Shown piece after piece: positions 1,479 through 64,000 of a stretch of 64,000 nt of DNA. Under the pieces are notes generated by a model. The model did not search any database and was not told the DNA's origin. It worked only from the letters and a program-made list of their open reading frames with translations. The DNA is taken from positions 7,005 to 71,004 of the forward strand of contig CALOBG010000065.1 of NCBI GenBank assembly GCA_942490995.1, written 5' to 3'. The stretch comes from an uncultured Gammaproteobacteria bacterium (GTDB lineage Bacteria; Pseudomonadota; Gammaproteobacteria; Ga0077536). The number at the start of each line of letters is the position of its first letter. The first letter of the stretch is position 1. A program made the translations under genes and the position numbers.

Positions 1479-1588
1479 GACTATCCCTCCGTTTACGGCT
1501 GACCCTGCTATTCGGGGTGCCGATTATTTTGTTTAACCACATCCAGCGCGAAACGGCCGTAGCTGCGTAACGACGGCTGTTTCGATTC

Positions 1589-2821: not shown

Positions 2822-2874
2822 CAAAAAGTGTCCCCACGCCGTGCCAGGTCGATCACCATTGCCGTTCCGTCATG

Positions 2875-11615: not shown

Positions 11616-12961
11616 GGGCGTTCTACCAGTGCCGCGACAATGCGATCGAGGGCCATGAAACGTGAGCCTTTGAACAACACGGTCGGCGCCGGCCGCGCGT
11701 CGGCCAGCGCCGCGCCGAGCGCCTCGATCAAGGCCTGCGGGTCATCGAAATGCTGTGCCCCGGAACCAAAGCTGCGCTGCATCACGCGCGCCAGTTCACC
11801 GATGGCAAACACACGTTCGACCCCGGCGCGGCGCGCCGCGTCGGCGGCGTCGCGGTGGAGCGCCTCGGCCTGTTCGCCGAGTTCGCCCATGTCGCCGAAC
11901 ACCAGCCACCGCGGGTCGGCGGCGCTGGCCAGGACCTCGAGCGCGGCGGCCAGCGAAGCGGGATTGGCATTGTAGGTATCGTCGATAAAGGCCGCGTCAT
12001 ATGGCCCCGAGCGCGCCACCAGGCGTCCCGCTACCGCGGCCGTTTCGGCCAGGCCGGCGGCAATCTGCTCGAGCGCGATGCCCGCGGCCAGCGCGGCGGC
12101 GGCGGCGGCGAGTGCGTTGTTGACATTGTGGCGGCCGCGCGCCGGCAGTCTGACGCTGACCACGCCGGCCGGGCTGTGCAGGCGGAACCCCGTGCAGGCG
12201 CCGTCCGGCACGATGTCGCTGGCATGGACGTCACCATCGCGACCGAAGGTCATGATGCGGCGGTGCGCGGCGAGTTCGCGCCACAACGGCAGAAAGTCAT
12301 CCTCGTTGTTCAGTACCGCGGTGCCGTCCGCGGCCAGACCCGTCAGTAACTCGCCCTTGGTCCGAGCGACGGTTTCCAGGTCGCCGAAACCTTCGAGGTG
12401 AGACGGCGCGCACAGCGTGATGACGCCGACCCCGGGCTGCGCTATCGCGGCCAGGGTGGCGATGTCACCGGCGCGGCTGGCGCCCATTTCGATAACCGCC
12501 GCGCGGTGCTCGGCAGCGAGCTTGAACAGGGTCAGCGGCACGCCGATGTCGTTGTTCAGATTACCCGCCGTCACCAGGGCCGGTCCGTTCCTGCGTACGA
12601 TCGCGCCGAGCATTTCCTTGACGGTGGTTTTGCCGGCACTGCCGGTAACACCAAACAGCGGCAGCTTGAATCGCTGCCGCCAGCCGCGGGCGAGCAGACC
12701 GAGCGCGGCGCGCGTCTCGTCAACCACGATGCGGGCCAGGGGTGACGACACCGGACGCGCGACGACGGCGCCGGCGGCGCCGGCAGCAGCAGCTTCGGCA
12801 AGCTTTTCGTGAGCATCGAAATGCGGCCCGCTGAGGGCAAAAAACAATTCACCGGCGACCAGCGTGCGGGTATCGGTACTGACCCCGCGAAAATCGCGAT
12901 TGGCGCCGTCGAGCCGCGCTTCGAGCAATCCCGCGGCCTCGGCCAGCGACAGCGCGATCAC
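11609..12961 (-). CDS. murF: UDP-MurNAc-tripeptide--D-Ala-D-Ala ligase
   Basis: [35 protein letters not shown]. Confidence 0.97.
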
Positions 12962-14460: not shown

Positions 14461-16199
14461 GGTGGACTCACCGCATCAGCTTCGGGCTTGCGGTGTTCGG
14501 CAAACCACACGCCATCCGGTCGCGATGGCAGGAGCCGGTCGGGCGCCACGTTCAAAATGCGGGTCGCTTCGCGCATCACGGTGGCAAAGATCGGCGCCGC
14601 AACCCGGCCGCCGAAATGCTCACCGCTTTTGGGCTCGTCGACCACAACGACGGCGACCAGGCGCGGCCGGGAGGCCGGGATCATGCCAGCGAACAGCGAC
14701 AGATAACGATCTTCGGCATAGCCCGAGACGATCGACTTGTGCACCGTCCCGGTTTTTCCGGCCACGCTGTAGCCCTCCACCTGCGCCTGCCGGCCGGTGC
14801 CGCGGGTGACGACGATTTCGAGCATGTTACGCACCGCCTGCACGGTTTCCGGCCGCAGCGCGCGTTCCCGCGGCGGCGGTGCCTGCAGGCGTACGATACT
14901 CAACGGCTGCAGCCAGCCGTCGTTGGCGAGCACGGTGTAGGCGCGCGCGAGCTGCAGTGTCGTCACCGACAGTCCGTAACCGAACGCGAGGGTCGCGTGT
15001 TCGATTTCGCGCCAGTTCGAAAACGGATTCAGGCGGCCGTAGGCTTCGCCGGGCAGGGAAACCTCGGTGAGCGAACCGAGACCGACCGCGTTGAAAGTTT
15101 TCCACAACAGCTCGGGCTCCATCGACAGCGCGATCTTGCTGGCCCCGACATTGCTGGATTTTTCGATGACGCCGACGATATCGAGTTTGCCGTAGTTGTG
15201 CATGTCGCGCACCGTGTGGCGCCCGACCTTGAAATATCCCGGCGCCGTTTCGACGGTACTCTCACTGCGGTAGCTGCCTGATTCCAGGGCCGCGGCGATG
15301 GTGAACGGCTTGATGGTCGACCCGGGTTCGAAAAGATCCGTCACCGCACGGTTGCGATAATTTTCGCCTTTCAGATCGCTGCGATTATTCGGGTTGAACG
15401 AAGGTTGGTTGACGAGCGCGATGATCTCGCCGTTGTGCGCGTCGACGATGACCATCGAAGCGGCGCGCGCGCGTTGAGCGTGGACCGCGTTTTTGAGGGT
15501 CCGGTAAGCGACATACTGAACGCGCTCGTCGATGCTCAATCGAATATCAATGCCGGGCTTGATCGGCTGCAGGCGTTCGACATTTTCGACTACCCGACCG
15601 AGTCGATCTTTAATCACTCGGCGCAATCCGGGTGCGCCGCGCAGCGCGTCGTCGAACACCAGCTCGATGCCTTCCTGCCCACGGTCGTCAACGTTGGTGA
15701 AACCAAGCACGTGCGCGGTCAGTTCGGCGGCCGGGTAATAGCGTCGATATTCGCCCTGTAAACGCAGCCCGCGCAGGTTGAGCGCGCGGATCTGGGCGCC
15801 CTGGTCGGGGGTCAGGTGGCGCTTGAGGTAAACAAACTTGCGGTCGAGACGCGGCAGGACCAGGGTCTCGAGGTGATCGATCGTCATGCCCAGCGCCTCG
15901 GCGAGCTGCGGCCAGCGGGCGCGCTCTTCGATGAACTCGCGGGGCGCGATCCAGGCCGATGAGGTCGGCGTGCTGATCGCGAGCGGCTGGCCGTTGCGAT
16001 CGGTGATCATGCCGCGGTTGGCGTGGATCTCCTCGACCCGCAGGTGGCGCGCATCGCCATGGCTCTGCAGAAATTCGCCTTCGTTCAGCTGCAGATCGAC
16101 CGCGCGCCAGACCAGGGTACAGGCGGCGGCGAGAAACACCGCCATCACCAGGCGCCGGCGGAATTTGAGCTCGCGATTGACACGTCCGTAACTGCTCAT
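14457..16199 (-). CDS. ftsI: Penicillin-binding protein 3 (septal transpeptidase)
   Basis: RGMITDRNG, EPGSTIK (SxxK), SSN (SxN), KTGT; ATG at 16199. Confidence 0.97.
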   Translation of the reverse strand: MSSYGRVNRELKFRRRLVMAVFLAAACTLVWRAVDLQLNEGEFLQSHGDARHLRVEEIHANRGMITDRNGQPLAISTPTSSAWIAPREFIEERARWPQLAEALGMTIDHLETLVLPRLDRKFVYLKRHLTPDQGAQIRALNLRGLRLQGEYRRYYPAAELTAHVLGFTNVDDRGQEGIELVFDDALRGAPGLRRVIKDRLGRVVENVERLQPIKPGIDIRLSIDERVQYVAYRTLKNAVHAQRARAASMVIVDAHNGEIIALVNQPSFNPNNRSDLKGENYRNRAVTDLFEPGSTIKPFTIAAALESGSYRSESTVETAPGYFKVGRHTVRDMHNYGKLDIVGVIEKSSNVGASKIALSMEPELLWKTFNAVGLGSLTEVSLPGEAYGRLNPFSNWREIEHATLAFGYGLSVTTLQLARAYTVLANDGWLQPLSIVRLQAPPPRERALRPETVQAVRNMLEIVVTRGTGRQAQVEGYSVAGKTGTVHKSIVSGYAEDRYLSLFAGMIPASRPRLVAVVVVDEPKSGEHFGGRVAAPIFATVMREATRILNVAPDRLLPSRPDGVWFAEHRKPEADAVSPP

Positions 16200-16459
16200 C
16201 GCAGTTCCACCACGCGGTTCGATCCCGGCGGCACCATGCCCAGTTGGTCGCGTGCCATGTCCTCGATGCGCACGGGTGTCGCCCAGGTTGCCTGTTCGAG
16301 CAACAGTTGGCCCCATTCCTGGTTAAGTTGCTCTCGAGTGTCGCGCAGGGTCTGCAGTTCGACGAACAGCGTGCGACTGGCGTGCCGGCTGAGTACCAGT
16401 TCGATGGCCGAAGCGAAGGTGCAGGTACCGGCGAGTAGCGCGACGACAAGCAACTTCAT
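16196..16459 (-). CDS. ftsL: Cell division protein FtsL
   Basis: Short TM plus leucine-zipper ending EWGQLLLEQATW; located between rsmH and ftsI. Confidence 0.9.
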   Translation of the reverse strand: MKLLVVALLAGTCTFASAIELVLSRHASRTLFVELQTLRDTREQLNQEWGQLLLEQATWATPVRIEDMARDQLGMVPPGSNRVVELR

Positions 16460-17370
16460 GCCACCCGCTCCAGGCCGCGCAGGCGGGCGCTGCGCGCGCG
16501 CGGGTTGTGCCGGCGTTCCTCGTCACTCGCCATCAGTGGCTTGCGGGTAAGCAGACCGAATGCCGGCGACAACGCGCGCTTCTCGCGTCGGCTTTCGCGC
16601 GCCGCACGATCGAGATCGCGAAAGCTGCGTTTGACGATGCGGTCTTCGAGTGAATGAAAAGCGATCACCAGCAGGCGCCCGCCCTCGCCGAGCATGGCCA
16701 GCGCCACCTGCAGGGCGCGCTCGAGCTCACCGAGTTCGTCATTGATATGCAGCCGGATGGCCTGAAACGTTCGGGTTGCCGGATCAATGCGACTGCCGCG
16801 CGCGTACACGCATGTCCGCACCAGCGCGGCGAGTTCGAAGGTTGTGGTCAGCGGATTCGTTTTACGGGTATCGACGATGCGCCGGGCGATCTGCCGCGAG
16901 CGACGTTCTTCGCCGTAGCGCCACAGGACATCGCTGATCTCGGTTTCGCTGGCGGTGCTCAGCCATGCGGCCGCCGACATGCCCGAGTCCGGATCCATGC
17001 GCATGTCGAGCGGACCATCGTTGCGAAAACTGAATCCGCGCGCGGCCTCGTCGACCTGGGGTGATGAAATACCAAGGTCGAAAAGGATCCCGTCGACCTG
17101 CCCTTGCAATCCGGCGCAGACCTCGGCGAGGCGTGAAAACGTTGTCTGAACCACGCGCAGGCGTGGCTCATCGGCGGCCAGCTCGAGGCCGGCCGTAATC
17201 GCCTGTGGATCGCGATCGAGCGCGATGACGCGACCGGTCGGACCGAGCCTGTCGAGTATGGCGCGGGTGTGACCGCCGCGGCCGAACGTCGCGTCGATAT
17301 AGGTTCCGTCCGGTTTGACGTTCATCAACTCAATGACCTCGGCCAGGAAAACCGGAACGTGCTGTGACAT
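16456..17370 (-). CDS. rsmH: 16S rRNA m4C1402 methyltransferase
   Basis: HVPVFLAEV, DATFGRGGH, DLGISSPQ, FHSLEDR, NPRARSA; alternative GTG start at 17385. Confidence 0.98.
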   Translation of the reverse strand: MSQHVPVFLAEVIELMNVKPDGTYIDATFGRGGHTRAILDRLGPTGRVIALDRDPQAITAGLELAADEPRLRVVQTTFSRLAEVCAGLQGQVDGILFDLGISSPQVDEAARGFSFRNDGPLDMRMDPDSGMSAAAWLSTASETEISDVLWRYGEERRSRQIARRIVDTRKTNPLTTTFELAALVRTCVYARGSRIDPATRTFQAIRLHINDELGELERALQVALAMLGEGGRLLVIAFHSLEDRIVKRSFRDLDRAARESRREKRALSPAFGLLTRKPLMASDEERRHNPRARSARLRGLERVA

Positions 17371-17388
17371 GGGTAGCGGTCTCACCGC

Positions 17389-17847
17389 TCACAGCGACAA
17401 GGTGTCGAGCGTCGCCGAAGAACCGTCGGTTCGCTTGCCGACATCGTCCAGCCAGCCATCGCGTTCGTTGCGCCAGCTCGTCGCGTCCCACAATTCGAGC
17501 TTGTTACCCTGCCCGAGCAGCACGACCTGCTTGCTGAGCGCGGCGATATCACGCAATTCCTGCGGCAACAGGATGCGGCCCTGGCCATCACAGCTGCAGT
17601 CGCTGGCGTAGCCGCGCATGATTTGTTTGGTCCGCCGGGCGTGCTTGTCGACGTCGGACAGGGCCGCCAGTTTGACTTCGATCAGCTCCCACTCGGGCAG
17701 CGGATAGAGCCACAGACAGCGATCCCAGGGATTGAGGGTGAGGACGAGCTCAGTACACTCCAGCCGTGCGAGGTTATCGCGGAACCGCGCAGAAATGGCC
17801 ACACGCCCCTTGGCGTCGACGTTGACGGTATTGAGTCCGCGAAACAT
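17389..17847 (-). CDS. mraZ: Division/cell wall cluster transcriptional repressor MraZ
   Basis: MFRG..VDAKGR and second repeat DGQGRILLP; ATG at 17847. Confidence 0.97.
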   Translation of the reverse strand: MFRGLNTVNVDAKGRVAISARFRDNLARLECTELVLTLNPWDRCLWLYPLPEWELIEVKLAALSDVDKHARRTKQIMRGYASDCSCDGQGRILLPQELRDIAALSKQVVLLGQGNKLELWDATSWRNERDGWLDDVGKRTDGSSATLDTLSL

Positions 17848-17916
17848 CTGCGGTACCTGGGTCCGTGCCGGCGCGACGCTCACCGAACCGATTCGGAAGC
17901 TGCAAAATCAGCTGGA

Positions 17917-32941: not shown

Positions 32942-32989
32942 CGTGGAGTACTCCTGTGAGTGGTTCTGTATGGCCGTCGAGGGTGCGGG

Positions 32990-34195
32990 TCAGGCGATTT
33001 TCATGACCACCGCCGCGGCCACGTCGCGGGCCTTGTGGCGCGCCTGGTCGATGCTCGACGCCCGCGCCAGCGCGACCCCCAGGCGCCGTTTGCCGGCGAT
33101 CTGCGGCTTGCCGAACAAACGCACATCGAGCTGTTCACCGGAAATCGCCGCGGCCAGCCCGTGGTAGCTGATCTCGCGCCCCTCGCCGTGCCCGAGCATC
33201 GCGCAGCTCGCCGCCGGCCCGAGCTGTTCGACGGCGCCGAGGCGTACGCCCAGGATCGCGCGCACGTGCAGTGCAAACTCGGACAATGTCTGCGAGATCA
33301 GTGTCACCATGCCAGTGTCGTGAGGGCGCGGCGAAACTTCGCTGAACCACACGTCATCGCCCTTGACAAAAAACTCGACCCCGAACAACCCCCACCCACC
33401 GAGCGCCTCGGTCACGGCCGCGGCGATTTCGCGGGCACGTCGTTCGGCGCCGGCACTCATCGCCTGCGGTTGCCAGGATTCGCGGTAGTCGCCATCGATC
33501 TGGAGGTGGCCGATCGGCGCACAGAATGTCGTGCCGCCGGCGTGACGGACCGTGAGCAGGGTGATCTCGTAATCGAAATCGATCAGGCCTTCGACGATCA
33601 CCCGTTCGCGGCTCGCGCGACCGCCGCTGACCGCATAATCCCACGCCGCCGCCGCATCGCTCGCCGTGCGCACCGTGAGCTGGCCTTTACCGGACGAACT
33701 CATCACCGGCTTGACGATGCACGGCATACCGATCGCCTCGATTGCGGCCCGGCACTCGCTTTCACTGGCGGCAAATCGATAAGCCGAAGTCGGCAGCCCG
33801 AGCTGTTCGGCGGCCAGTCGCCGGATACCTTCGCGGTCCATGGTCAGGCGTGCGGCCTCGGCGGTCGGCACGACCTTGAAACCTTCGTTTTGCAGGTCAA
33901 CCAGCGTATCGGTTGCTATGGCTTCGACTTCGGGCACGATGAAGGCGGGTTTTTCCAGTTCGATAACAGCCCGCAGCCTGGCGCCATCGAGCATGTCGAT
34001 GACATGGGCGCGATGCGCGATCTGCATGGCCGGCGCGTCGGCATAGCGATCGACGGCGATCACCTCGAGCCCGAGGCGCATCGCCTCGAGCGCGACCTCA
34101 CGACCGAGTTCGCCGGCGCCGAGCAGCAGCAGGCGCGTGGCGTTGGAGGCCAGCGGCGTGCCGATCAAAACGGGTTCGGAGTCGGTGTCTGTCAT
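32990..34195 (-). CDS. purT: Formate-dependent phosphoribosylglycinamide formyltransferase
   Basis: [49 protein letters not shown]; ATG at 34195. Confidence 0.97.
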
Positions 34196-34275
34196 GTCGA
34201 TTCGTGGCGCGTAGAGCGGGAAAACGCGCGTGGTGTCAGGCGCGTGTCGGCGCAGGGCCTTGGCAACGGGCCGCT

Positions 34276-35397
34276 TCAATGGACATCGAAATCCATCGCG
34301 CTCAGTTGCTGCACAGTATCGTTGTCCAGCCCGGCACGCGCAACGCTGAATGCGGCGAACTGTCGGTGCAGGCCATCACGTCGCCGTTGCTCGTCGAAAC
34401 CCGGACCGCGCGCGGGCGGGGCCAGCCCGGCCAGCGTGCGCATCTGTTCGCTGCGCGTGGCCAGCGGATAAACGCTGGCGAGGACGGCGGCCACGCTGCG
34501 CCGATCGCCGGGCACACTGAGCCGCGTGATTTCGCCCTCATTCTCCGGCCAGCCTGCGGCAACGCCGCCATACGCCGACAGTGCTGTGTGCAACATCCTC
34601 GCCGCTGCGATGCGCGCTTCCAGGGTATGGCCGGCGATGTGGGTACTGGCGCGCCACGACCGCGCCAGCAACGCCGGCCAGATGTGCGGCTCGCCGCTCC
34701 AGCAGTCGAGCGCGGCGTACAGGGCTCGCGGCGCGATCAGGCGTGCGAGCAAGGCGCGTTCATCGATGATCCCGCCGCGCGCGGCGTTGATCAGCAAGGC
34801 ACCGGGACGCAAAGCGCCGAGTTCGGCCGCGCCCAGCAGACCGCGGGTCGGGTGCGGGCCGTCGGCAATCAGCGGAACGTGCAGGCTGACCACATCGCAG
34901 CCAAGCAGCGCCTCCAGACTGGTGCAGGTAACCCCGGCGATGCGTGGGCCGCGCGGCGGATCGTTGACCACGAAATCGATCGCCAGGCGCTGCAGCAGCG
35001 CGCCCAGCGCGCTGCCGACATGGCCGTACCCGACGATGCCGACCTTCAGCGCGCGGGGGTCGCCACCGCGTTCGGCGCTATAAGCGTACAGGCAGCAGAC
35101 GACATGTTCGGCGACCGCGCGCGCATTACAGCCGGGGGCGGCAGCGAAGGCGATATCGCGGGCCTTGAGGTAGTCGAGGTCGACGTGATCGGTACCCGCC
35201 GTCGCGGTGCCGACGAAGCGCACCGAACTGTCTGCGAGCAGCACGCGATCGACGCGCGTCACCGAGCGCACCAGCAGCACGTCGGCGTCCTTGATGTCGT
35301 CAGCGTTGAGCGCGCGACCGTCAAATGTGCGCACCGCACCGAGCGCGGCGAAGGCCGTCGTGGCGCCGTAAATCTCGCGGTCGACGAGCAGCTTCAT
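34276..35397 (-). CDS. pdxB: 4-phosphoerythronate dehydrogenase
   Basis: [48 protein letters not shown]. Confidence 0.93.
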
Positions 35398-40899: not shown

Positions 40900-40986
40900 G
40901 CCGGGATGGCGGAACTGGTAGACGCGCCAGACTCAAAATCTGGTATCCGTAAGGATGTGGGGGTTCGATTCCCCCTCCCGGTACCA
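40900..40986 (+). tRNA. tRNA-Leu (anticodon CAA)
   Basis: Acceptor GCCGGGA/TCCCGGT plus ACCA, anticodon arm CCAGA-CTCAAAA-TCTGG, long variable arm, T arm GGGGG-TTCGATT-CCCCC. Confidence 0.98.
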
Positions 40987-49070: not shown

Positions 49071-50740
49071 CCCGCATTTCTCACCGCGTCGGCGATTAAC
49101 GCAGTCGTCTGGTAGCGATGGGGAAGCGAGCCGCGCATCGCTGGCGTGAACCCGGCAGATCACGCGGCTTGCCTATCTGCGGGCGAGCGAACCCACCCGA
49201 CGGTGTCGGTGGTGGGGTTCGATGGCGAAGGCAGCAGTCTGGTTCGTAGGGGGCGGCTTAACGCGCCGCGACGTCCAGGGCATGGCAGGCGGCGATGAAC
49301 TCCCGCTGATGCGGGCAGCCGCTACTCATCGCGAGCTTGACCCTGCGCACGCTGACCGTGACCACCGCGCCGATCTTCAACAGGCGCAGGCGGATGGTCG
49401 TCGCACAAGCACGCGCGAGCGTGGTGCCGGCCAGTCCGATGCGGCGCACGGCGTGCATCAGCACATAAGCCGCCGACGCCCACCACAGGCGCAGCTGGTT
49501 ACCGCGCAGGGTCTCGGTCGAGAGCCGGTCGGCGAACAGGTCGAGCTGGCATTCCTTGATGCGGTTCTCGGCCTCACCGCGCGCGCAATAGAAGTCCTCG
49601 TACAGCGCCCGTGCCGCCCAGCGTCGCTTCGACAACGAGGTCACGATGAAGCGCGGATTCGATTTGTCACCGGTATGCTCAGCCTTGGCCACCACACGGC
49701 GTGACCGGCTCCAGCTCTTGCGCGTCCGATACGCGAGCTCGCGGAAACAGCGCGCCGGGCTCTGCGTGGCTGCCGACGTCTCCGCCACCGTCTGCAGTTC
49801 ACTGCCTATCGCCCGTACCAGACGGGCGTTACGCGCCAGCCCGAACACGTATTCCACGCCATTTTCCTCGCACCAGCCCATCAACGCCTCGCGGCAGAAG
49901 CCCGAGTCCGCTCGCAGCACGATGCGCGTCTTCGGCCACCGCGCACGCACCTGGGCGACGATGCGTTCGACCTCCTCCACCGCCCCCGCCGCACCGTCGA
50001 TGTTCGCCTGTACCGCAGCTTCGCGGCCAACAGATGCTCGCCGCAGTAGATGTACAACGGCAGGTAGCAGTAGTGATCGTAATAGCCGTGAAAGAACCGT
50101 GCTTCCTGATGGCCGTGCAACGCCACGTCGGTCGCATCCAGATCCAGCACGATCTCCGCCGGCGGCTCGCGGTAAGCCTCCAGGAACAGCGCCACGAACA
50201 ACCGTTCGATCGCTGATTCGTCCGGGCGGATCTTGTGATAGCGATGCGCCCCGCTCGCCGGATAGCATTCCAGACGGCTCAGCGTGCTCTTGCCCGCCAG
50301 TGCTGCACAGTCCTCGCGTAACCGCGGCGACAGCTTGCCCAGCAGCGCACCCATCACCGGGTCATGGCGTAGCTCGTCGTGGTCGTTCAGGTCTTCGTAT
50401 CCCAGCGCCAGCGCGAACACCCGTTGACCGACCAGCGTGCGCAACGAGTGCTCGACCAAGTCAGCCTGCCGCTCGTCGATGAAGCAGCGCGACAGCCGGT
50501 CGATCAGACCGACCGCCGCGTCCGCCTTACCCAGCAGTAGCGCGCCGCCATCCGAGCTCACCGTTCCGCCATCGAACGCCGCCACCACGCGGCGGCGTCC
50601 AGCCCATGAAAACGTCAGTTGTTCAGCGGTACACTGTGTCGGCATCGGGAACCTCCTCTGAGGGGTCGTAACTCGTTCACGCAAAACAAGTTTGATCCTC
50701 TCGGAGGCCCGATGCACTAACTACGTGTGAGAAATCCGGG
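49071..50740 (-). mobile_element. IS1380-family insertion sequence, 1670 bp
   Basis: Terminal IRs CCCGCATTTCTCAC (49071-49084) and GTGAGAAATCCGGG (50727-50740), 13/14 match; 4-bp target duplication CTAG at 49067-49070 and 50741-50744. Confidence 0.93.
49258..50645 (-). pseudogene. IS1380 DDE transposase, frameshifted at 50011-50012
   Basis: FDGGTVSSDGG, LDLDATD, RADSGF, RGEAENRIKE; removing 2 nt (TA) restores AAKLRQANIDGAAG. Confidence 0.9.
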
Positions 50741-56381: not shown

Positions 56382-56864
56382 ATGCCTTCGTTCGATATCG
56401 TATCCGAGGTCGACCAGCACGAATTAACCAACGCCGTCGACCAGGCAACTCGTGAACTATCCACGCGTTTTGACTTCAAGGGCACGAATGCCCGCATTGA
56501 GCGCAATGATAATGTCATCACGCTCATTGCAGAAGCTGAATTTCAAACCCGGCAGATTCTCGAGATCCTGCAGAACAAGCTTGGCGGCCGGGGTATCGAC
56601 ATCGATTGCCTGGAACTCGGGACGGTATCGACGAATGTCGCCGAGGCGCGCCTGCCGATCACGGTGCGCGAAGGTGTAGACAAGGACCTGGCGCGCAAAA
56701 TGACCAAGCTGATCAAGGATTCGAAACTCAAGGTCCAGTCCCAGATCCAGCAGAACCAACTGCGGGTGACCGGCAAGAGCCGTAACGATCTGCAAAATGT
56801 GATCAGCATGCTCAAGGCGGCCAAGCTTGAATTTCCACTGCAGTTCAAGAATTTTCGCGATTGA
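56382..56864 (+). CDS. yajQ: YajQ-family nucleotide-binding protein
   Basis: MPSFDIVSEVD, RFDFKG, VQSQIQ..QLRVTGKSRNDLQ, QFKNFRD. Confidence 0.96.
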   Translation: MPSFDIVSEVDQHELTNAVDQATRELSTRFDFKGTNARIERNDNVITLIAEAEFQTRQILEILQNKLGGRGIDIDCLELGTVSTNVAEARLPITVREGVDKDLARKMTKLIKDSKLKVQSQIQQNQLRVTGKSRNDLQNVISMLKAAKLEFPLQFKNFRD

Positions 56865-57090: not shown

Positions 57091-57408
57091 ATGGAACTGA
57101 GCGCGCTACTGCTGTGCGGCCTCACTTACGTGCTGTGGACATGGGTGATCCGAGGCCGCGAGATTGTCGATCGCGTGTCGAGCAGATTGTGTCGTGACCT
57201 GGATTTGCAGCGCCTCGACGGCTCCGTCGCACTCGCCGATCTCGGCCTCGAGCGCCGCCGACATAGCCTGTTGGTGCGACGGATTTACGCCTTCGAATAC
57301 TCGACAAGTGGCAGCGACCGCCGTTCGGGGCGGGTCTGCCTGTTGAACACCGTGCCGGTATGGGCGCGCCTGGAACATCCGCAAGGCCCGCTCCACATCG
57401 ACTTATAA
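57091..57408 (+). CDS. DUF3301-like membrane-anchored protein
   Basis: N-terminal TM, C...LQRLDGSV, RIYAFEYS..G..RRSG. Confidence 0.75.
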   Translation: MELSALLLCGLTYVLWTWVIRGREIVDRVSSRLCRDLDLQRLDGSVALADLGLERRRHSLLVRRIYAFEYSTSGSDRRSGRVCLLNTVPVWARLEHPQGPLHIDL

Positions 57409-57443: not shown

Positions 57444-60431
57444 TCAGTCGGCGTCGCTGCCCTGCAGGTGTTCGGCAAGTTCGTCGATCAAGGATTGGTC
57501 GTGATCCTTGGCGGCTTTACGGGCGGCCTCCGCGCGTTGCTTGATGCGTTCGATATGGGCTTTCTGATTGGCCAGCACTTCGCGCTGCTCGGCGCTGTTT
57601 TCGAGATCGGACTGTTCCGAGATCCAGGCGTCGAGCTCGTGCTTCAGATCGGCCCGGGCCTGTTCGACATGGACCTGGTGCGCGGCGAGATTCCCCGCTG
57701 AAGCGACCGCCTGCGCCTGCACGTCGGCACGCGCCTTCTCGGTACGAGCGACCTCTTCCGCGGCTAGATTGGCCGCGGCCTCGAGCTTCTCGAGGTCTTC
57801 GCGCGTATCGGAGTCAAGCTGAGGCGTTTCGCGCCTGAGCGACTCGATCTCGGCTTCGATGCGCTCGCGCTTTTCCTGGGCGGCGTCTTTTTCGCGCTGC
57901 GCGAGCTCAAGGGCGAGACGCAGACGTTTCGATTCGAGTTCAAGGCGCTCGCGCTCGACGCGCATATCGGCCTCTTCCTGCATCCGCTTGCGTGCATGCG
58001 CGGCCTTGAACTCGGTGACTACCTTCTGCGCTTCGTCGGCTGCCGCGATGCGCGCGGCTTCGGCGGCGTCGCGCTCACGGCGCGCGCGCTGCAGTTCGAC
58101 CGCGTTGCGCGCCAGCTCCTGCTCCAGCGCGGCGCGTTCGGACTGGACCTTCTGGTTGAGTTCCTCGCGCAGGCGGCGCTTGAGCTCGATCTCCTGGCGT
58201 TCGCGCAGCGCCGCCTCGGCGGCACTGGCCTGCTCAACCTGCTCGAGTCGGTTCTGGTAGTCGCGGGCCTGCGCGAGCTGCGCGCGGGCCTGCGCGGACT
58301 GTTTCTCTACCCGTTCCTGCTCGTCGCGCAGACGCGCTTCGGCTTCCACCTTCTGCTGTTTGAGGCGTTGCAGTTCTTCGGCCTGCCAGGCATAGCTCTC
58401 ACGCAGTTTTGCTTCTTCGTCCTGCAGGCGCCGTTCCATCTCGGCTCGCACTTGCTCGACACGCAGTGCCTGCTCCTCGCGCTCGCGCTCGACCTGGCGC
58501 TCGGCTTCGGCCCGAGCCTGCTCGAGTTCTTCCTTCAGTCGTCGTGCTTCTGACAGTTCGCGCTGGGCCTGTTCCGCGGCCTGCTCGAGCTTGCCGCGTT
58601 CGGCCAGTTCGGCCTCGAGTTTCTGTTGCGCTTCGCGCGCTGCTTCTTCACGCGCGCGCTGAAGTTCGGCACTGGCTTTCTCGCGCTCGAGGGCAATCTG
58701 CTTTTCGGCTTCGCCCTGAGCGGCCTTGCGCGCGGCCTCGGTTTCGGCCCGGATCTCTTCCTCGCGGCGCTCGGCTTCGTGCCGTTCAGCCTGGTGACGT
58801 TGCTCAGCTTCCTGCTCGATCTGCTTGCGCGCGTCAAGCAACTCGGCATTGATTTTGGCCCGCTCGGCAGCGATCTGTTTTTCAGCTTCGTCCTGGGCTG
58901 CCTTGCGCGCCGCCTCGGCCGCGGCAAGCACGGCCTTTTCACGACGCTTGGATTCGAGTTTCTGCTCGGCCACCTGCTCGGCGAGCTTGCGCGCACGTGC
59001 GAGCTCGGCCTTGGCTTTCGCCTGCGCGGCCTTGATCTGTTTTTCGGCCTGCTCCTGCGCCGCCTTGCGGGCGGCAAGTGTGGCCGCCTGGATCGCACGC
59101 TCGCGGCTCAGGCGTTCCTCTTCGGCCCGTGCCGCGCTGGCCTGGGCTGCGCTGGCATGGGCCGCGCTATCGCTGGATTCGGCCAGCCGCAACTCGTTGA
59201 TCCCGAGTTTCACGCTCAGCGCGGCAGCTTCGGTAGCGGGGTCCTGCGGGCTCTCCTTGGCGCTTTTGTGCGAAGACGGCACCGGTGCGGGTGCCGGCGC
59301 GGGGCGATCGGCATCGGCGGTCGTGTCGTCTTCGCTGAGGCTGAGATCGACGTCACCATCGGAGGCCGGTACAGGGCTCGCTTCGCTATAGGCAACCAGG
59401 CCACCCTCAAGGAAATGCACGTCGAATCCACGTTCGGCGAGCAGAAACGCGGCCACGCAACTGAGTGAACCATCGTCGCAATAAACGAGGTAGGTTTTGC
59501 TCGAATCGAGCCGCCCGCTATGCATGCGCAGTGTATTTAGCGGATGGTTGATACTGTTTTTGAGTGCGTTGGCGGCGTGCTGCTCGGGAAAGCGAACATC
59601 AAGCCAGACCGCACCGCGCGTGGCTTCGATGTCACGCCCGGCGCTGAGGCTGACGGCGCTGAGCAGCGGTTTTTTGATCAGGTTGGAAAAATCTTCATTG
59701 CTCAGGCGGACAAGCTCACCGTCAGTGAGCATGGTTACGGTAGCGTTGCGCGGGCCACCGCCAACCAGCGCCTCTTCGCCGAAGGCATCGCCCGGACCAA
59801 TCAGGGCCAGGCGATAGCCGGACGCACTGGGACCGGAGGCGCGGGTGATCTCGGCGCGACCACGGACCACGACATAGTAGAAATCACCGTCGGCGTCCTG
59901 CTTCACGATGACGTCGCCCTGCGCCGCGGTGATGGTCTCCATACGGCTGAAAATACGGTGGATGTTCGACGCCGGCAGATTGGAAAACAGCTTCGACTGG
60001 AGCATGCGCGTCATCCAGTCGTCGTCTTCCTCGGAGTCAATTTCCGCAACCTGAAAGGCGCGCCGCTCCTGTTCAGCCTGGTCAGTGCGCATCTTGTCCA
60101 GTAAGGCGCGGTCGATACGCAATACGGACACAGCGCTTTCGGCGCGCGCCGACATCTTGCGTGGCTGGAGCTGGGCGAGCGCGTGCACGGCATCATCGCT
60201 GCCGCCGACCAGGCGCTGAATGGTCTGCCCGCCGCTGAGTAACTCGAGACGACCCTCGAGCAGATAAAAGGAGTACGGATCGGTGTCACCTTCGTTGAAC
60301 ACGAAAGCGCCACGTTCAAAATTCAGGACTTCGGACTGGTCCAGGATCTCGGCCTGGTTCTGCGGCGATAGCACGCCCAGCGGCACCAGGGTACTTACCA
60401 GCCCCTCAAAATTCGATTCCACTGCCGACAT
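57444..60431 (-). CDS. Giant cNMP-cNMP-rhodanese-coiled-coil protein, paralog A (995 aa)
   Basis: Start moved to ATG 60431 (MSAVESNF), which aligns with paralog B; degenerate CNB (LAQLQPRKMSA), canonical CNB (FGEEALVGGGPRNATV), rhodanese (WLDVR, YCDDGS, LEGG), long E/A/R/K/Q-rich helical region. Confidence 0.9.
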   Translation of the reverse strand: MSAVESNFEGLVSTLVPLGVLSPQNQAEILDQSEVLNFERGAFVFNEGDTDPYSFYLLEGRLELLSGGQTIQRLVGGSDDAVHALAQLQPRKMSARAESAVSVLRIDRALLDKMRTDQAEQERRAFQVAEIDSEEDDDWMTRMLQSKLFSNLPASNIHRIFSRMETITAAQGDVIVKQDADGDFYYVVVRGRAEITRASGPSASGYRLALIGPGDAFGEEALVGGGPRNATVTMLTDGELVRLSNEDFSNLIKKPLLSAVSLSAGRDIEATRGAVWLDVRFPEQHAANALKNSINHPLNTLRMHSGRLDSSKTYLVYCDDGSLSCVAAFLLAERGFDVHFLEGGLVAYSEASPVPASDGDVDLSLSEDDTTADADRPAPAPAPVPSSHKSAKESPQDPATEAAALSVKLGINELRLAESSDSAAHASAAQASAARAEEERLSRERAIQAATLAARKAAQEQAEKQIKAAQAKAKAELARARKLAEQVAEQKLESKRREKAVLAAAEAARKAAQDEAEKQIAAERAKINAELLDARKQIEQEAEQRHQAERHEAERREEEIRAETEAARKAAQGEAEKQIALEREKASAELQRAREEAAREAQQKLEAELAERGKLEQAAEQAQRELSEARRLKEELEQARAEAERQVEREREEQALRVEQVRAEMERRLQDEEAKLRESYAWQAEELQRLKQQKVEAEARLRDEQERVEKQSAQARAQLAQARDYQNRLEQVEQASAAEAALRERQEIELKRRLREELNQKVQSERAALEQELARNAVELQRARRERDAAEAARIAAADEAQKVVTEFKAAHARKRMQEEADMRVERERLELESKRLRLALELAQREKDAAQEKRERIEAEIESLRRETPQLDSDTREDLEKLEAAANLAAEEVARTEKARADVQAQAVASAGNLAAHQVHVEQARADLKHELDAWISEQSDLENSAEQREVLANQKAHIERIKQRAEAARKAAKDHDQSLIDELAEHLQGSDAD
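58590..59075 (-). repeat. Three in-frame tandem repeats AARKAAQxxAEKQI in paralog A
   Basis: Units start at 59075, 58913 and 58736 (periods of 54 and 59 codons). Confidence 0.85.
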
Positions 60432-60562
60432 TGATCTCACGCATGGGTTTCCGGTAGCCACATTTCTAACGCTGTGCTTACGCGACCGCGCCGCAGCAAC
60501 TGCTGAGCGGACTTCAAATATATGCACTCTTTGCAATTGACACATGGATGCCTTGCACTAAC

Positions 60563-60578
60563 TGTGAAGGGCATCACG
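60563..60578. promoter_or_regulatory. CRP/Vfr/Clp-type binding site in the divergent intergenic region
   Basis: TGTGA-AGGGCA-TCACG versus consensus TGTGA-N6-TCACA (9 of 10). Confidence 0.7.
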
Positions 60579-60804
60579 CTGAAATGTACCAAATCTGATG
60601 TAATTTTCGACGTGCCTCAGGCGTAACGGGCCTAAGCTGTCGAAACTTAAGCGATTTTTGGAAAAATACTCGAATCGCTCACAGTTTACCGAGCGCCGCC
60701 TCGCTGGCGGCGGGACAAGCGGCGGCGAAATCGCGCTGCGGCGTGTCAAGGGCGCGAATCAGCGTAGAATGTCGCTCGAATTCTAGCAGCGGAATCAGGC
60801 TACC

Positions 60805-61011
60805 GTGTCGAGCGAGGAAACCAAGTCAATTCAATACCATATCCTTGAATTGCAGACCGAGCACCGTGATCTCGATCAGATTGTGGCGACCCTGTCGGAC
60901 AACCCGGACGTTGACCAACTGCTGCTGCGACGCATGAAAAAACGCAAATTGTACCTAAAAGACGAGATCGCCCGACTCAAGAGCGAACTCATTCCCGATC
61001 TCGACGCATGA
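60805..61011 (+). CDS. DUF465/YdcH-family small helical protein
   Basis: LQTEHRDLD..DQLLLRRMKKRKLYLKDEI..LIPDLDA; GTG start; candidate -10 TAGAAT at 60765-60770. Confidence 0.92.
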   Translation: MSSEETKSIQYHILELQTEHRDLDQIVATLSDNPDVDQLLLRRMKKRKLYLKDEIARLKSELIPDLDA

Positions 61012-61051
61012 ACCGTCGCGCTGCGCCGCTTAACTCCGTGCACGCATTGCG

Positions 61052-63487
61052 ATGAGCGACGATCCCGGCACGCTGGAGGCCCGGGTCGGCTTTCTTGTCC
61101 CACTCAACAAGTTACCGCCGGAACGGCGGGCGCGCCTGCTGGAACAATCGCAGGTGATCACCCTGCGCAAGAAGCAGACCCTGTTCAAGCAAGGTGAACG
61201 AGACGATTTCACCTATTATCTGATCGACGGCGAAATCGAAATGTACGCCGACGACTCCCTGATCAAACGCGTTACGGGTGGCGACGGCGCTTCGTTTCAG
61301 CCGCTCGCGCAGTTGCAACCGCGACAGATGAGCGCCGTTGCCAAAAGCAAAGCGGAGATCCTGCAGGTCAAGCGCAGCCTCCTCGATCAGCTCCTGAGCA
61401 TGGACGAGGCCGCGCCGGAGCCCGACACCGGCATGGAAGTCGAGGAAATGGAGGCCGACCAGGGCGGCGACTGGCTGATGACCCTGCTGCAGTCGGAATT
61501 GTTTACCCGCATTCCGCCGTCCAATATTCAGGGTCTGCTCGACACCCTCGAAACAATTTCTCTGCAGGCCGGTGACGTCGTCATCAAGCAGGGTGAACCC
61601 GGAGATTTTTATTACGCCATCCAGAGCGGCGCCTGCGAAGTTGTGCGCAGCGGCGCGAACCAGCGCGAGATCAAGCTCGCCGAACTCGAGACCGGCGCAA
61701 CTTTTGGTGAGGAGGCGCTGATCTCCGGCGCCAAACGCAATGCCACGGTGCGGATGACGCGCGCCGGCGATCTCGCGCGGCTGACCAAGGAAGATTTTTC
61801 GCGCCTGATCAAGGCGCCTCTGCTGAATTCGATGACCCGTCAACAGGCCGAAACAAAAATTGCCGCCGGCGCCACCTGGCTCGACGTGCGGTTTGAGGAC
61901 GAGTTTGCCCATAACGGCATCGCCGGGGCCGTCAACATACCGCACGGCACGCTGCGTACGCGTATGGACGAACTCAATCCGGAGTCCGCCTACGTGGCCT
62001 ACTGCGATACCGGCGGACGCAGTTCGGCGGCCGCGTTTCTGCTTGCCGAGAAGGGCTTCGAGATTGGCTACGTCGAAGGCGGCGCGGTCACCGAGCCGAT
62101 ACCGGAAAAATCCGCGGCGCCTGCGCCGGCAAAGAAAGCCCGGTCAACGACCAGGAAATCAAGTACCAGCACGGCCGGTAAATCCAGCCCGGAGCAGGCG
62201 CAAGCTGCGTCGAGCGCGGCGCCGACCCGGGAACAGGACAGCCAGGCATTGCTGGAGGCGAGTGCGCTCGCGTCCAGCCTCAGCGCCGAAGCCGAAAAGG
62301 CTCAACTTACCATCGACAAGGCACGCGCAATGATGGCCGAAGCAGAGGCCATGAAGCGCGAGGCGGAACGAGTGGTCGCGGAGAAACTCGCGGCGGAACG
62401 TAATCGGATTGACAGCGAGGCGACCAGGCTTAAAGAGAAACTCGCCGAAGCGGAAGCCGTCAAACTCGAATCACAGCGCGCCGCACAAGCCAGGATCGAC
62501 GAAGAACAGCAGCGCATCAAAGCCGAAGCGAGCAAACTGGAACAACGCCTCGCCGAAGCCGAACGGCTGAAAGCGGCTCTCACCGAACAACACAAGGCGG
62601 CCGAAGCGGACGCCGCGCGGCGTCAGGAGGAAGTCGAGCAACGCGTGCGCGCACTCGAAGACCAGACCCGCGAGCGCCTGCAGACCGAGGAGCGGCGCCT
62701 CGAGGCGCTATACCAGGACCAGACCGCGCAGCTCGAATCTCTGCAGGCCGACCGCGAGGTCGAGCTGCGCGCCAGGCTCAGCGACGAACTGGCCACGGAA
62801 CGCAGAAAGTTCGAGCAGGAAGTGCTGCGCACGAACGAAGAACTCGAGCGCGCCCAGGAAGAACGCCGCCAGGCGATCGCGGCAAAGGAAGCGGCAGCGG
62901 AAGAAGCACGTTCCACGATCGCCGAATTCAAGGCCGAACAACAGGCTTTGCAGGTCGAGCAGCAGGCTGCGCTCGATCGCGAGCGCCAGCGCCTGCAGGC
63001 CGAAGCGAAGCGTATCGAACAGATCCGCGCCGAGGCGGGCAAGGCACGCGAGGCGGCCGAGGCCGCGCAACAGGCGGCGGAACTCGAACTGCAACAGGCG
63101 CGGGAGCGCGCCGCCGAGGCCGCTTCAATCGCCGACGAACGCGCTCTGGACGAAATTGAAAAACGCGCCTCGGCCGCGCAACGATCGTTGAATAAGGCGA
63201 TCCGGGCCGAAACCGTCGTGCAGACCGCGGCGCGAGAGAACGAAGACCAGCTCGAGCGCACTTACGACACGGCTACCGAGATCAATCTGTTGCTCGAGAA
63301 GGAATTGAAGGAATTTGTCGGCGACCAGGAAAAATTTCAGGAATCGACCCTGCAGCGTGAAGTGCTGTCACGCCAGAAGGAAATGGTCGAACGGATCAAG
63401 GCTCGCGCCGCACAGGTGCAACGCGAGCGCGAGACGCAGAACCTGAGCCTGCTCGACGAAATCGAACAGCAATTAAAAAAGAACTGA
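61052..63487 (+). CDS. Giant cNMP-cNMP-rhodanese-coiled-coil protein, paralog B (811 aa)
   Basis: Degenerate CNB (LAQLQPRQMSA), canonical CNB (FGEEALISGAKRNATV), rhodanese (WLDVR, YCDTGGRS, VEGG), P/S/A/K linker, long charged helical region. Confidence 0.92.
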   Translation: MSDDPGTLEARVGFLVPLNKLPPERRARLLEQSQVITLRKKQTLFKQGERDDFTYYLIDGEIEMYADDSLIKRVTGGDGASFQPLAQLQPRQMSAVAKSKAEILQVKRSLLDQLLSMDEAAPEPDTGMEVEEMEADQGGDWLMTLLQSELFTRIPPSNIQGLLDTLETISLQAGDVVIKQGEPGDFYYAIQSGACEVVRSGANQREIKLAELETGATFGEEALISGAKRNATVRMTRAGDLARLTKEDFSRLIKAPLLNSMTRQQAETKIAAGATWLDVRFEDEFAHNGIAGAVNIPHGTLRTRMDELNPESAYVAYCDTGGRSSAAAFLLAEKGFEIGYVEGGAVTEPIPEKSAAPAPAKKARSTTRKSSTSTAGKSSPEQAQAASSAAPTREQDSQALLEASALASSLSAEAEKAQLTIDKARAMMAEAEAMKREAERVVAEKLAAERNRIDSEATRLKEKLAEAEAVKLESQRAAQARIDEEQQRIKAEASKLEQRLAEAERLKAALTEQHKAAEADAARRQEEVEQRVRALEDQTRERLQTEERRLEALYQDQTAQLESLQADREVELRARLSDELATERRKFEQEVLRTNEELERAQEERRQAIAAKEAAAEEARSTIAEFKAEQQALQVEQQAALDRERQRLQAEAKRIEQIRAEAGKAREAAEAAQQAAELELQQARERAAEAASIADERALDEIEKRASAAQRSLNKAIRAETVVQTAARENEDQLERTYDTATEINLLLEKELKEFVGDQEKFQESTLQREVLSRQKEMVERIKARAAQVQRERETQNLSLLDEIEQQLKKN
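62333..62575 (+). repeat. 36-codon tandem repeats (M/L)AEAExxK in paralog B
   Basis: Units start at 62333, 62441 and 62549, exactly 108 nt apart. Confidence 0.8.
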
Positions 63488-63557: not shown

Positions 63558-64000
63558 TCAGGCCGCGGTCGCGGCATCCATACCCATTTGATCGCAGAGA
63601 AATGCGGTCAGAAGACGTTCGGCGCGCTGGTTCAAGTCGACGAAACGCATCCCGATCACGCAGCGCGGTTCTGAATCCACCGTAGTCAGGTACAACAATC
63701 GGCAGTCGCATTCGAGGTGCGCCGCGCCCGCGGCCAGCGGTAAGGTGATGTCGGCCTTGAACAGCACGTCCGACATCGGATCAACCCTGCCGCCCGCGGG
63801 ATGAAGCTGGCGGGCGGCGGCGATATCGCAACGTAGCTGCAGTCCGTCGGGCGATACATTCAGGGCGAGCACGGGTACTTCTTCGCCGTCGGCGCTGAAA
63901 ATGCGCACCCCGCCATCGATCGGTATACGCGGATACTGGCGCTGTTCGTCAAGCTTTTCGACGAGCTGCCAGACCAGGCTGCCGCGCCTGGCTGGTGATT
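63558..64000 (-). CDS. PilZ-domain protein (5' end probably beyond the window)
   Basis: Frame is open to the window edge: ..LDEQRQYPRIPIDG (RxxxR) and ALNVSPDG ((D/N)xSxxG), C-terminal IGMRF; the ORF track started downstream of RxxxR. Confidence 0.88.
   Translation of the reverse strand, partial: SPARRGSLVWQLVEKLDEQRQYPRIPIDGGVRIFSADGEEVPVLALNVSPDGLQLRCDIAAARQLHPAGGRVDPMSDVLFKADITLPLAAGAAHLECDCRLLYLTTVDSEPRCVIGMRFVDLNQRAERLLTAFLCDQMGMDAATAA

Follow-up and report, generated by a model that had tools for sequence, protein, structure and literature searches.

We found a pair of oppositely oriented genes, here called A and B, whose products join two CNB domains to a rhodanese domain, a linker and a long helical tail. 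Our tentative interpretation, which we hold with rather less than even confidence, is that A and B are duplicated cytoplasmic cyclic-nucleotide receptors, namely rhodanese modules gated by cNMP and carried on helical tethers, A being the CRP-inducible copy and B the one coupled to DUF465. The pair lies in the window, which here means the whole 64-kb stretch of DNA that was analysed.

Gene A, 57444..60431, minus strand: 995 aa; degenerate CNB, canonical CNB, rhodanese, linker and helical tail (open reading frame; Pfam, 2 x PF00027 and PF00581)
Gene B, 61052..63487, plus strand: 811 aa; degenerate CNB, canonical CNB, rhodanese, linker and helical tail (open reading frame; Pfam)

The maximal open reading frame of A has 1033 aa and reaches 60545, and the choice of the 995-aa start (MSAVESNF) is supported by MSALESNF in the orthologs. 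In both proteins Pfam detected two cNMP_binding domains (E 6e-27 and 9e-31) and a Rhodanese domain (E 1.6e-9 and 6.5e-12). The order of degenerate CNB, canonical CNB, rhodanese, linker, charged helix and shared C-terminus, proposed earlier from the sequence-only reading, is borne out by Pfam, alignment, AF2 and composition. The same reading had aligned the two proteins end to end. This holds for the N-modules, which share 40% identity across aa 1-357 with 8 gap positions (BLASTP, E 1e-92), a similarity far beyond chance that identifies A and B as paralogs. The alignment of the helical regions, however, is weak (35% over 235 aa, E 3e-9), and A exceeds B by 184 aa, in part via three private ~55-aa repeats. 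As had been suggested, both proteins look cytoplasmic; a 19-mer Kyte-Doolittle scan found no TM segment in A (maximum 1.33) or B (0.75), compared with a maximum of 2.46 in a membrane-like relative.

The domains of the N-module are placed as follows.

A CNB-A, aa ~15-116, 60084..60389, minus strand: pseudo-PBC VHALAQLQPRKMSA, from an alignment
A CNB-B, aa ~148-259, 59655..59990, minus strand: canonical PBC FGEEALVGGGPRNATV, best Pfam stretch 170-253
A rhodanese, aa ~262-350, 59382..59648, minus strand: Pfam 274-350, loop CDDGSLS (Arg lost)
A Cys318 codon, 59478-59480, minus strand
B CNB-A, aa ~15-116, 61094..61399, plus strand: pseudo-PBC FQPLAQLQPRQMSA
B CNB-B, aa ~149-259, 61496..61828, plus strand: PBC FGEEALISGAKRNATV
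B rhodanese, aa ~262-345, 61835..62086, plus strand: loop CDTGGRS
B Cys318 codon, 62003-62005, plus strand

Conservation was counted in 98 N-modules, which include every architecture of the family. The PBC of CNB-B is canonical (FGEEAL...R-N-A) in 98/98 members, with FGE in 98/98 and the Arg in 98/98. The Asn that follows this Arg is unusual. CNB-A carries F-Q-P-L-A-Q-L-Q-P-R in place of a canonical PBC and lacks its Gly-Glu, while P90 (98/98) and R91 (97/98) of this pseudo-site are kept; alignment and counts thus agree with the earlier assignment of a degenerate first and a canonical second CNB. The rhodanese Cys is residue 318 in A and B alike, as noticed before, and is present in all 98 modules; the loop Arg is found in 93/98. 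Taken together, these counts indicate that the cNMP pocket and the Cys are under strong constraint. The A protein of the window (CDDGSL) has kept the Cys and lost the Arg, which 15 other A orthologs retain, so that at least in this copy normal sulfurtransferase function may be missing.

The rhodanese assignment rests on PF00581 in both proteins and on the six-residue CxxGxR loop, CDTGGR in B. This fold and loop Cys are shared with GlpE, PspE and the C-terminal domain of ThiI, although the NCBIfam matches to PspE, GlpE and ThiI_C were weak and all under their cut-offs. A and B differ from such single-domain rhodaneses in being fused behind two CNB domains and, for A of the window, in lacking the loop Arg.

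The tandem CNB fold superposes on PKA RI-alpha, Bcy1 and PKG (Foldseek E ~1e-18, 255-290 columns; 1ne4, 3of1, 4z07) and has sequence similarity to PKA/PKG regulatory modules (E ~1e-17 to 1e-22), which upholds the proposed likeness to PKA regulatory subunits. Two consecutive CNB domains are common to PKA-R/PKG and A/B. However, both PBCs of PKA-R are canonical (FGE...R[AST]A), whereas in A/B only that of CNB-B is, and the rhodanese and long helical tail that follow the CNBs set A/B apart from PKA-R/PKG. PKA-R moreover has a docking/dimerisation domain and an inhibitor sequence, which A/B lack, as they lack a kinase partner; no kinase gene is found in the A/B neighbourhood. Since these are the closest tandem CNB folds, the N-module might act by PKA-R-like sequestration, holding a partner enzyme inactive until cNMP binds and using the rhodanese as a docking surface instead of a catalyst. 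The invariant pseudo-site of CNB-A could then serve as a protein-protein latch, and the loss of the loop Arg that A of the window tolerates would fit. We nevertheless regard this mode of action as unlikely: CNB-A begins at about residue 15, too near the N-terminus for a docking domain or inhibitor sequence to precede it, no candidate partner gene was found to be conserved across contexts, and the conservation of Cys318 and of the loop Arg points to chemistry at this site.

With the CRP/FNR factors A and B share a CNB domain with a canonical PBC. CRP/FNR have a C-terminal HTH, whereas Pfam and NCBIfam scans found no HTH family in A/B, and the database label 'CRP-like cAMP-binding protein' given to the family is misleading. 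A further parallel, compared by description only, may be CbpA (PA4704), a non-transcriptional bacterial cAMP-binding protein. CbpA combines a degenerate with a functional CAP-like domain and is regulated by Vfr; upstream of A lies a conserved candidate operator of the CRP/Vfr type. P. aeruginosa CbpA is not known to carry a rhodanese or a helical tail. A role in defence was also considered and rejected, as the only PADLOC match, to a TIR effector model, scores 23 bits and covers its CNB part; for Pycsar/CBASS-type effectors we found neither a profile match beyond the CNB nor a defence island. A literature search for the combination of CNB and rhodanese returned nothing relevant (encapsulin papers name both domains, in different proteins), and database names are generic only. 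The CNB-CNB-rhodanese-tail architecture is thus in no characterised family, in line with the earlier view.

Behind the N-module the proteins continue as follows.

A low-complexity linker, aa 351-440, 59112..59381, minus strand: Ala/Ser/Pro/Asp-rich by composition
A charged helical tail, aa 441-995, 57447..59111, minus strand: 43% charged, 22% Ala; the last ~60 aa are the shared C-terminal motif
A three tandem ~55-aa protein repeats, aa 453-622, 58566..59075, minus strand: ARKAAQxEAEKQI at aa 454, 508 and 567
B linker, aa 346-398, 62087..62245, plus strand: disordered, Ala/Ser/Thr/Pro by composition
B first long helix, aa 399-563, 62246..62740, plus strand: AF2 DSSP
B predicted antiparallel helical hairpin, aa 569-689 and 693-810, 62756..63481, plus strand: AF2 fragment, contains the conserved C-terminal motif

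It had been proposed that these regions let A and B co-assemble into a heteromer that serves as a cNMP-gated scaffold, cytoskeletal or polar and possibly related to motility. Both proteins do have long helical regions, and the C-terminal motif is common to A and B and conserved by alignment across many relatives. The predicted structure of the tails nevertheless speaks against a filament-length rod. The helical regions (41-43% charged, 17-19% strong hydrophobics) showed no power peak at period 3.5 in a simple periodicity test, while coiled-coil cytoskeletal proteins have continuous heptads and a hydrophobic core. B is predicted by AF2 to be helical over aa 399-810, with breaks at 564-568 and 690-692 that give three helices, and in AlphaFold residues 354-411 have pLDDT < 50. 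The last 245 aa of B fold back as an antiparallel hairpin (H2-126 and H129-246; pLDDT 87.8, pTM 0.55) in an AF2 fragment prediction of the monomer, instead of forming a continuous rod. In Foldseek the best shape matches of this hairpin were antiparallel hairpins, none with significant homology, and the C-terminal 247 aa had no sequence relatives in the PDB. The repeats in the tail of A were recovered by direct alignment (pairwise score ~125 vs 49 +/- 6 for shuffled sequences) and are not present in A orthologs; self-BLASTP found no repeats in the rods, and at the DNA level these contain only trivial short tandem arrays.

FimV/HubP-type polar hubs resemble A/B in their long, charged, low-complexity cytoplasmic regions, and a sister sub-family of A/B is seemingly membrane-anchored, with an FGE-sulfatase past a TM-like segment. 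A/B differ in that Pfam detected no LysM, TPR or FimV C-terminal motif and in having no TM segment, and the anchored variants show a reversed topology. The apparent anchoring of the equivalent region in this sister sub-family would fit a scaffold or tether role.

The distribution of the family also bears on the scaffold. The 350-aa N-module defines a large, gammaproteobacterial family with 1,267 50%-identity clusters at E<=1e-30 and occupies residues 1-350 in nearly all top matches. Among the loci we distinguished three architectures: a short form of 344-363 aa, a tailed form of ~700-1340 aa, and a form of 1354-1808 aa with tail, TM-like segment and FGE-sulfatase. Of the library representatives above 1100 aa, 25/31 finish with the FGE-sulfatase signature. 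The most populous branch carries the core module without any tail, and this tailless core occurs in many lineages. Carriers are widespread in environmental Gammaproteobacteria and include Woeseiaceae, Steroidobacteraceae, Thiohalomonadaceae and Ectothiorhodospiraceae; a non-MAG Povalibacter record has the short 350-aa form, too.

The divergent A/B pair, by comparison, was found in 18/83 loci examined, all in one clade. Within it the adjacency of the two genes is preserved down to ~44% identity (17 distinct loci), which speaks for a joint scaffold. In most relatives, however, the locus contains only one copy, and the relative L013 has kept B and lost A. We found no evidence for a heteromer; the length of A does not track that of B (r = 0.03, n = 12) and exceeds it in every case, by 78-549 aa. 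Overall, we consider such a scaffold improbable. The pair is, judged from these sequences, a clade-restricted duplication and not a system of its own, as it had been taken to be. The sequence-only reading had named single homologs in random contexts as an outcome that would count against it: homologs do largely occur singly, but their contexts are conserved, not random.

The region between the two genes contains three further elements.

Candidate CRP/Vfr-type operator TGTGAAGGGCATCACG, 60563..60578, no strand assigned: centre 139 nt upstream of the ATG of A
Conserved -10-like element GCGTAGAAT, 60762..60770, plus strand: ~35 nt upstream of DUF465, a near-invariant alignment block
DUF465 (YdcH-like) gene, 60805..61011, plus strand: 68 aa, GTG start, 40 nt upstream of B; PF04325 E 2.2e-14

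The description of A and B as head to head therefore stands for their divergent orientation, but not in the simple sense, since the DUF465 gene, overlooked at the time, sits between them. In silico, the operator pattern TGTGA-N6-TCACG is conserved upstream of A in 17/17 distinct pair loci (18 rows, of which L002 duplicates L001), 116-146 nt from the A start. It is the sole match with <=1 mismatch in the 64 kb, against a background of 0.03 CRP-like sites per kb, and forms a conserved island within an alignment of 32% mean identity. Neither B nor 64/66 single-copy relatives showed such a site upstream; as just 2/66 of the latter have one, a family-wide feature was rejected. The CRP-family regulator reading this operator might not be cAMP-responsive and could answer to another signal. 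A promoter scan gave GTGTCA-16-TAGAAT at 60743-60770, and by its sequence the -10-like element is the probable promoter of a DUF465-B operon. DUF465 precedes B-type genes in 23/81 loci, including one otherwise unrelated context, with a conserved spacing of 40-55 nt; given this count, it was rejected as a universal partner. Mimicry of the C-terminal segment of A/B by DUF465 was rejected as well (hhalign probability 0.5%). The only PDB relative of its product is HP1242 (E 0.008), and no known RNA families were found around the pair.

The genes that flank the pair are listed below.

YajQ/DUF520 gene, 56382..56864, plus strand: syntenic neighbour, Pfam E 4e-60
DUF3301 gene, 57091..57408, plus strand: convergent with A, syntenic neighbour, Pfam E 1.1e-18
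PilZ-domain gene, 63558..64000, minus strand: convergent with B, frame open to the window end

Synteny around A/B is conserved in the pair clade, and family loci lie in core-chromosome contexts (dcw cluster, secDF, tgt). No pilus, flagellar or chemotaxis genes occur nearby, which does not favour the polar or motility-related role suggested for the scaffold. The PilZ gene of the window has intact RxxxR (RQYPR) and NxSxxG (NVSPDG) motifs, and its L001 ortholog has 155 aa (PF07238 E 1.3e-8). A 118-aa PilZ protein, which presumably resembles PA2960, adjoins the short forms after holB-tmk-mltG-pabC-fabF. The window PilZ had no BLAST match at the short-form loci; the two neighbours thus differ, and a link to type IV pili was rejected. 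Genes for a cyclase, CRP or sulfur metabolism were found neither in the window nor within +/-10 kb of relatives with gene tables.

The signal might also flow in reverse, with the rhodanese Cys sensing sulfane sulfur or redox state and the CNBs binding a non-cNMP ligand or none, in a sensor unrelated to cAMP. Many of the lineages that carry the family oxidise sulfur (Thiohalomonadaceae, Thiogranum, Thiohalobacter, Sulfurifustaceae, Ectothiorhodospiraceae), and the PKA-R homologs 6hyi and 6flo in the PDB, described as cAMP-independent and nucleoside-binding, indicate that CNB folds can switch ligand. Nevertheless, the PBC of CNB-B is canonical in all 98 modules, the candidate operator at A would tie the locus to cNMP signalling, and the family is abundant in Steroidobacteraceae and Povalibacter as well, which are not known as typical sulfur oxidisers. 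Reversed flow therefore appears very unlikely to us.

In the cNMP-gated rhodanese interpretation that we tentatively prefer, the conserved unit would be the 350-aa N-module, which runs from a pseudo-CNB through a ligand-competent CNB to a rhodanese with a catalytic-type Cys. Binding of cAMP or another cNMP to the second CNB may move its C-terminal lid helix, which runs straight into the rhodanese and would act jointly with QLQPR, the invariant pseudo-site of the first CNB. This movement could alter the exposure or reactivity of Cys318 and so gate persulfide/sulfur transfer or thiol chemistry toward a partner. The variable C-terminal part, predicted to consist of a disordered linker and then long helices with a conserved antiparallel hairpin at their end, is most likely a tether or an oligomerisation/docking element; in the sister sub-family the equivalent region appears to run on to the TM-like segment and the FGE-sulfatase domain. 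In the pair clade the gene was duplicated, with B remaining coupled to DUF465 behind the conserved -10 element. A would have gained the CRP-type operator and is hence probably induced by the second messenger it senses, in a feed-forward arrangement.

Besides CRP/Vfr, the bacterial cAMP effectors described so far are very few. A recent review has cAMP acting globally in most bacteria via CRP only and lists CbpA as the other P. aeruginosa effector (PMC11139211). The family described here is large (>1,200 50%-identity clusters) and strongly conserved, and it combines within one protein a cNMP pocket and a rhodanese Cys that are both intact. With one paralog behind a conserved CRP-type operator, it is a good candidate for a non-transcriptional cAMP effector. 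A bolder proposal, to which we give a low probability, is that it represents a new class of such effectors, a tethered cNMP-gated persulfide/sulfurtransferase relay connecting second messengers with sulfur trafficking or thiol redox, in which CRP-induced A would join constitutive, DUF465-coupled B via the shared hairpin base and change the stoichiometry or reach of the assembly as cAMP rises. The operator before one paralog offers a concrete, testable regulatory hook, and for biochemistry the short 350-aa form is a convenient target. Should ligand binding control the Cys, the family would provide a direct link of cyclic-nucleotide signalling to sulfur/redox chemistry.

Genes A and B are real open reading frames, and Pfam recognises in each of them two cNMP_binding stretches and a single Rhodanese domain. 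Their order of two cyclic-nucleotide-binding domains (CNB-A and CNB-B) followed by a rhodanese, together the N-module, had been described correctly in the sequence-only reading.

Features of the window discussed here
336-17883, minus strand: complete dcw cluster (mraZ, rsmH, ftsI, murE, murF ... murC, murB, ftsQ, ftsA, ftsZ)
40900-40986, plus strand: tRNA-Leu(caa)
49261-50268, minus strand: IS4-like DDE transposase ORF, matching profile positions 190-430 of 435 only
57444-60431, minus strand: gene A, 995 aa
58566-59075: three tandem protein repeats of about 55 aa in the tail of A (aa 453-622)
60762-60770: GCGTAGAAT block, about 35 nt upstream of DUF465, a conserved island in the intergenic alignment
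60805-61011, plus strand: DUF465 gene, 68 aa
61052-63487, plus strand: gene B, 811 aa
63558-64000, minus strand: PilZ-domain gene, convergent with B and cut by the window end

The maximal ORF of A extends to 60545, and the start of the 995-aa form (MSAVESNF) agrees with the MSALESNF of its orthologs. As first noted, both proteins have the rhodanese Cys at residue 318 and neither contains a TM-like stretch. The description of A and B as head-to-head paralogs aligning end to end holds in part. Residues 1-357 share 40% identity with 8 gap positions (BLASTP, E 1e-92), whereas the helical parts align weakly (35% over 235 aa). Moreover, the DUF465 gene, which had been overlooked, lies between the two, so that A and B do not face each other directly; placed 40 nt upstream of B, it makes B the downstream member of a small operon.

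The complete dcw cluster and the tRNA-Leu(caa) confirm that the window is core chromosome, which also carries LppC, cytochrome b, a DegP-like protease, hisD, murA, mlaC, secDF, tgt, queA, a CDF transporter, APH and PreP. The IS4-like transposase ORF, just upstream of the syntenic APH-PreP block, may be truncated, and a 503-aa ORF (32960-34468, plus strand) has high GC3 and no Pfam match. Genes for a cyclase, CRP, pili, flagella or sulfur oxidation are absent from the window; PADLOC gave just a weak CNB match for defence systems and Rfam no RNA families around the pair. Putative nucleotide or c-di-GMP binders lie on both sides of the pair: YajQ (56382-56864) and the PilZ protein, whose c-di-GMP motifs RxxxR (RQYPR) and NxSxxG (NVSPDG) are intact. 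Relatives lacking the tail (short forms) also lie tail to tail with a PilZ gene (L059:11192-11545 and 24 other loci), which is probably inherited synteny. Their PilZ neighbour, of 118 aa, is not the protein found next to B and closes the cluster fabG-acpP-fabF-pabC-mltG-tmk-holB-pilZ; PilZ adjacency is therefore not read as a pilus link.

Searching with B yielded 573 proteins, each containing CNB and rhodanese domains. The best 120 of these span 466-1076 aa, are nearer B than A in all but one case and bear only the names 'cyclic nucleotide-binding domain-containing protein' and 'CRP-like cAMP-binding protein'. An exhaustive search of representatives gave 1,267 clusters at 50% identity (E<=1e-30), and the N-module occupies residues 1-350 in almost every one of the top 150. 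At least 560 matches were obtained among GTDB species representatives, and the hosts among the matches listed include Woeseiaceae, Steroidobacteraceae, Thiohalomonadaceae, Thiogranum, Thiohalobacter, Ectothiorhodospiraceae, Sulfurifustaceae and unnamed Gammaproteobacteria. Three architectures occur.

Architectures of the family
Short form, 344-363 aa: N-module without the tail
Tailed form, about 700-1340 aa: many with the C-terminal motif W..EQ...RIK.RA...SLLDEI
Third form, 1354-1808 aa: helical region, then TM-like segment, then FGE-sulfatase domain (PF03781, E 1.6e-63)

Short forms are extremely numerous and show good conservation, and a non-MAG Povalibacter record carries one. The FGE-sulfatase ending is found in 25 of 31 long representatives; at L045 (from 2758, 1452 aa), L056, L060 and L065 the N-module is followed by a helical region of about 750 aa, the TM-like segment, a Pro-rich spacer and the FGE-sulfatase domain.

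AlphaFold2, run on B with 50 orthologs, gave a pLDDT above 90 for the N-module and predicted disorder at 122-137 and 354-411. Residues 1 to about 260-290 superpose on the tandem CNB-A/B module of PKA RI-alpha, Bcy1 and PKG (Foldseek, E ~1e-18), in agreement with a PDB sequence search. Among 98 N-modules from the 83 relatives' loci and the window, the cassette of CNB-B, FGEEAL...R-N-A, does not vary (FGE and Arg each 98/98), and CNB-A carries instead an invariant non-canonical LAQLQPR (Pro 98/98, Arg 97/98). The Cys of the rhodanese loop YCDxGxRS is present in 98/98, the Arg in 93/98. The window's A, with CDDGSLS (Arg to Leu; 59463-59480, aa 318-323), is the sole A ortholog without the loop Arg, while 15 others keep CxxGxRS. 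This loss may reflect sub-functionalisation, or decay of catalysis in that copy.

Of the 83 loci, 18 contain the divergent pair, and every one of these belongs to the clade nearest the window. Two of them (L001 and L002) are almost the same; distinct examples number 17, including the window. Its synteny is PreP, YajQ, (Zn-ribbon), DUF3301, A(-), DUF465(+), B(+), PilZ(-), then AAA and VWA genes. The remaining loci hold a single copy about equally distant from A and B, and in one relative (L013:2143-9258, PreP-YajQ-DUF3301-DUF465-B-PilZ) B persists in the absence of A. A and B form sister clades in a neighbour-joining tree, with DUF465-linked single genes (L083, L016-18) branching at the base of B. 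In 23 of 81 loci DUF465 lies upstream of a B-type gene, including cases in which all other neighbours differ (hemC-DUF465-gene-panC in L083). The lengths of A and B do not co-vary (r = 0.03, n = 12), A being longer in every case. Taken together, the single-copy loci, the locus without A, the tree and the uncorrelated lengths indicate that the pair is a lineage-specific duplication of a widespread gene and not a self-standing two-gene system, so that its proposal as a candidate new system was overstated. Nothing speaks for an obligate A/B heteromer, and the proposed heteromeric filament is weakened by the prevalence of single copies and the mismatched lengths.

The tail, too, makes such a filament less likely. 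It is 41-43% charged, with 19-22% Ala and 17-19% strong hydrophobics, and lacks the 3.5-residue periodicity of heptads. AlphaFold2 places three long helices in B (399-563, 569-689 and 693-810). Run separately, residues 565-811 gave two equal helices with a two-residue break (pLDDT 87.8, pTM 0.55), and the best shape matches were antiparallel hairpins (colicin E receptor-binding domain, Tsr cytoplasmic domain, Smc arm fragments, YscO, SipB), all with non-significant Foldseek E-values. The tail end is thus predicted to be a hairpin that folds back on itself and brings two conserved segments together at its base, rather than a single filament-length rod. Part of A's extra length is due to its repeats (ARKAAQxEAEKQI at aa 454, 508 and 567; 55-60% mutual identity), which are private to the window's A and absent from its orthologs; tail length evolves through local repeat expansion.

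Allowing one mismatch, the sole match to TGTGA-N6-TCACA in the 64-kb window lies between A and DUF465 (60563-60578). TGTGA-N6-TCAC(G/C/T) is present in all 17 distinct pair loci, 116-146 nt upstream of the A start, despite intergenic lengths of 294 to 551 nt. Only 2 of 66 single-copy relatives have it within 450 nt upstream, and its background density is 0.03 per kb in 1.34 Mb of loci, a large share being the pair-locus sites themselves. In the intergenic alignment (32% mean identity), this site and the GCGTAGAAT block are the only islands of strong conservation. Four distinct pair loci (L001, L003, L004, L009; TGTGAAGCACTTCACC and similar) have a second CRP-like site 42 nt beyond the first, which the window lacks. 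If TATATT on A's strand (60522 to 60517) serves as the -10, the operator would lie near -60, a class I-like position. This placement and the conservation of the operator suggest that A is probably under a CRP/Vfr-family regulator, and DUF465-B probably has its own conserved promoter.

The best-supported reading is that A and B are cNMP receptors in which ligand binding would act allosterically on the rhodanese Cys, the presumed output through sulfur transfer, while the helical part would serve as a tether or for docking. What the data show is the architecture, the conservation of the motifs, the distribution, the history of duplication and the conserved operator; the ligand, the coupling, sulfur transfer and the tether role are proposals. 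A would be the CRP-inducible and B the DUF465-coupled paralog. The nearest functional analogue is CbpA of P. aeruginosa. We found no publication describing the combination of CNB and rhodanese domains, and no characterised protein that adds a tail to it, as the earlier reader had supposed. The architecture is an uncharacterised variant among bacterial CNB-domain effectors, and its significance lies in a large conserved family, the CNB-rhodanese fusion and a conserved CRP-type operator.
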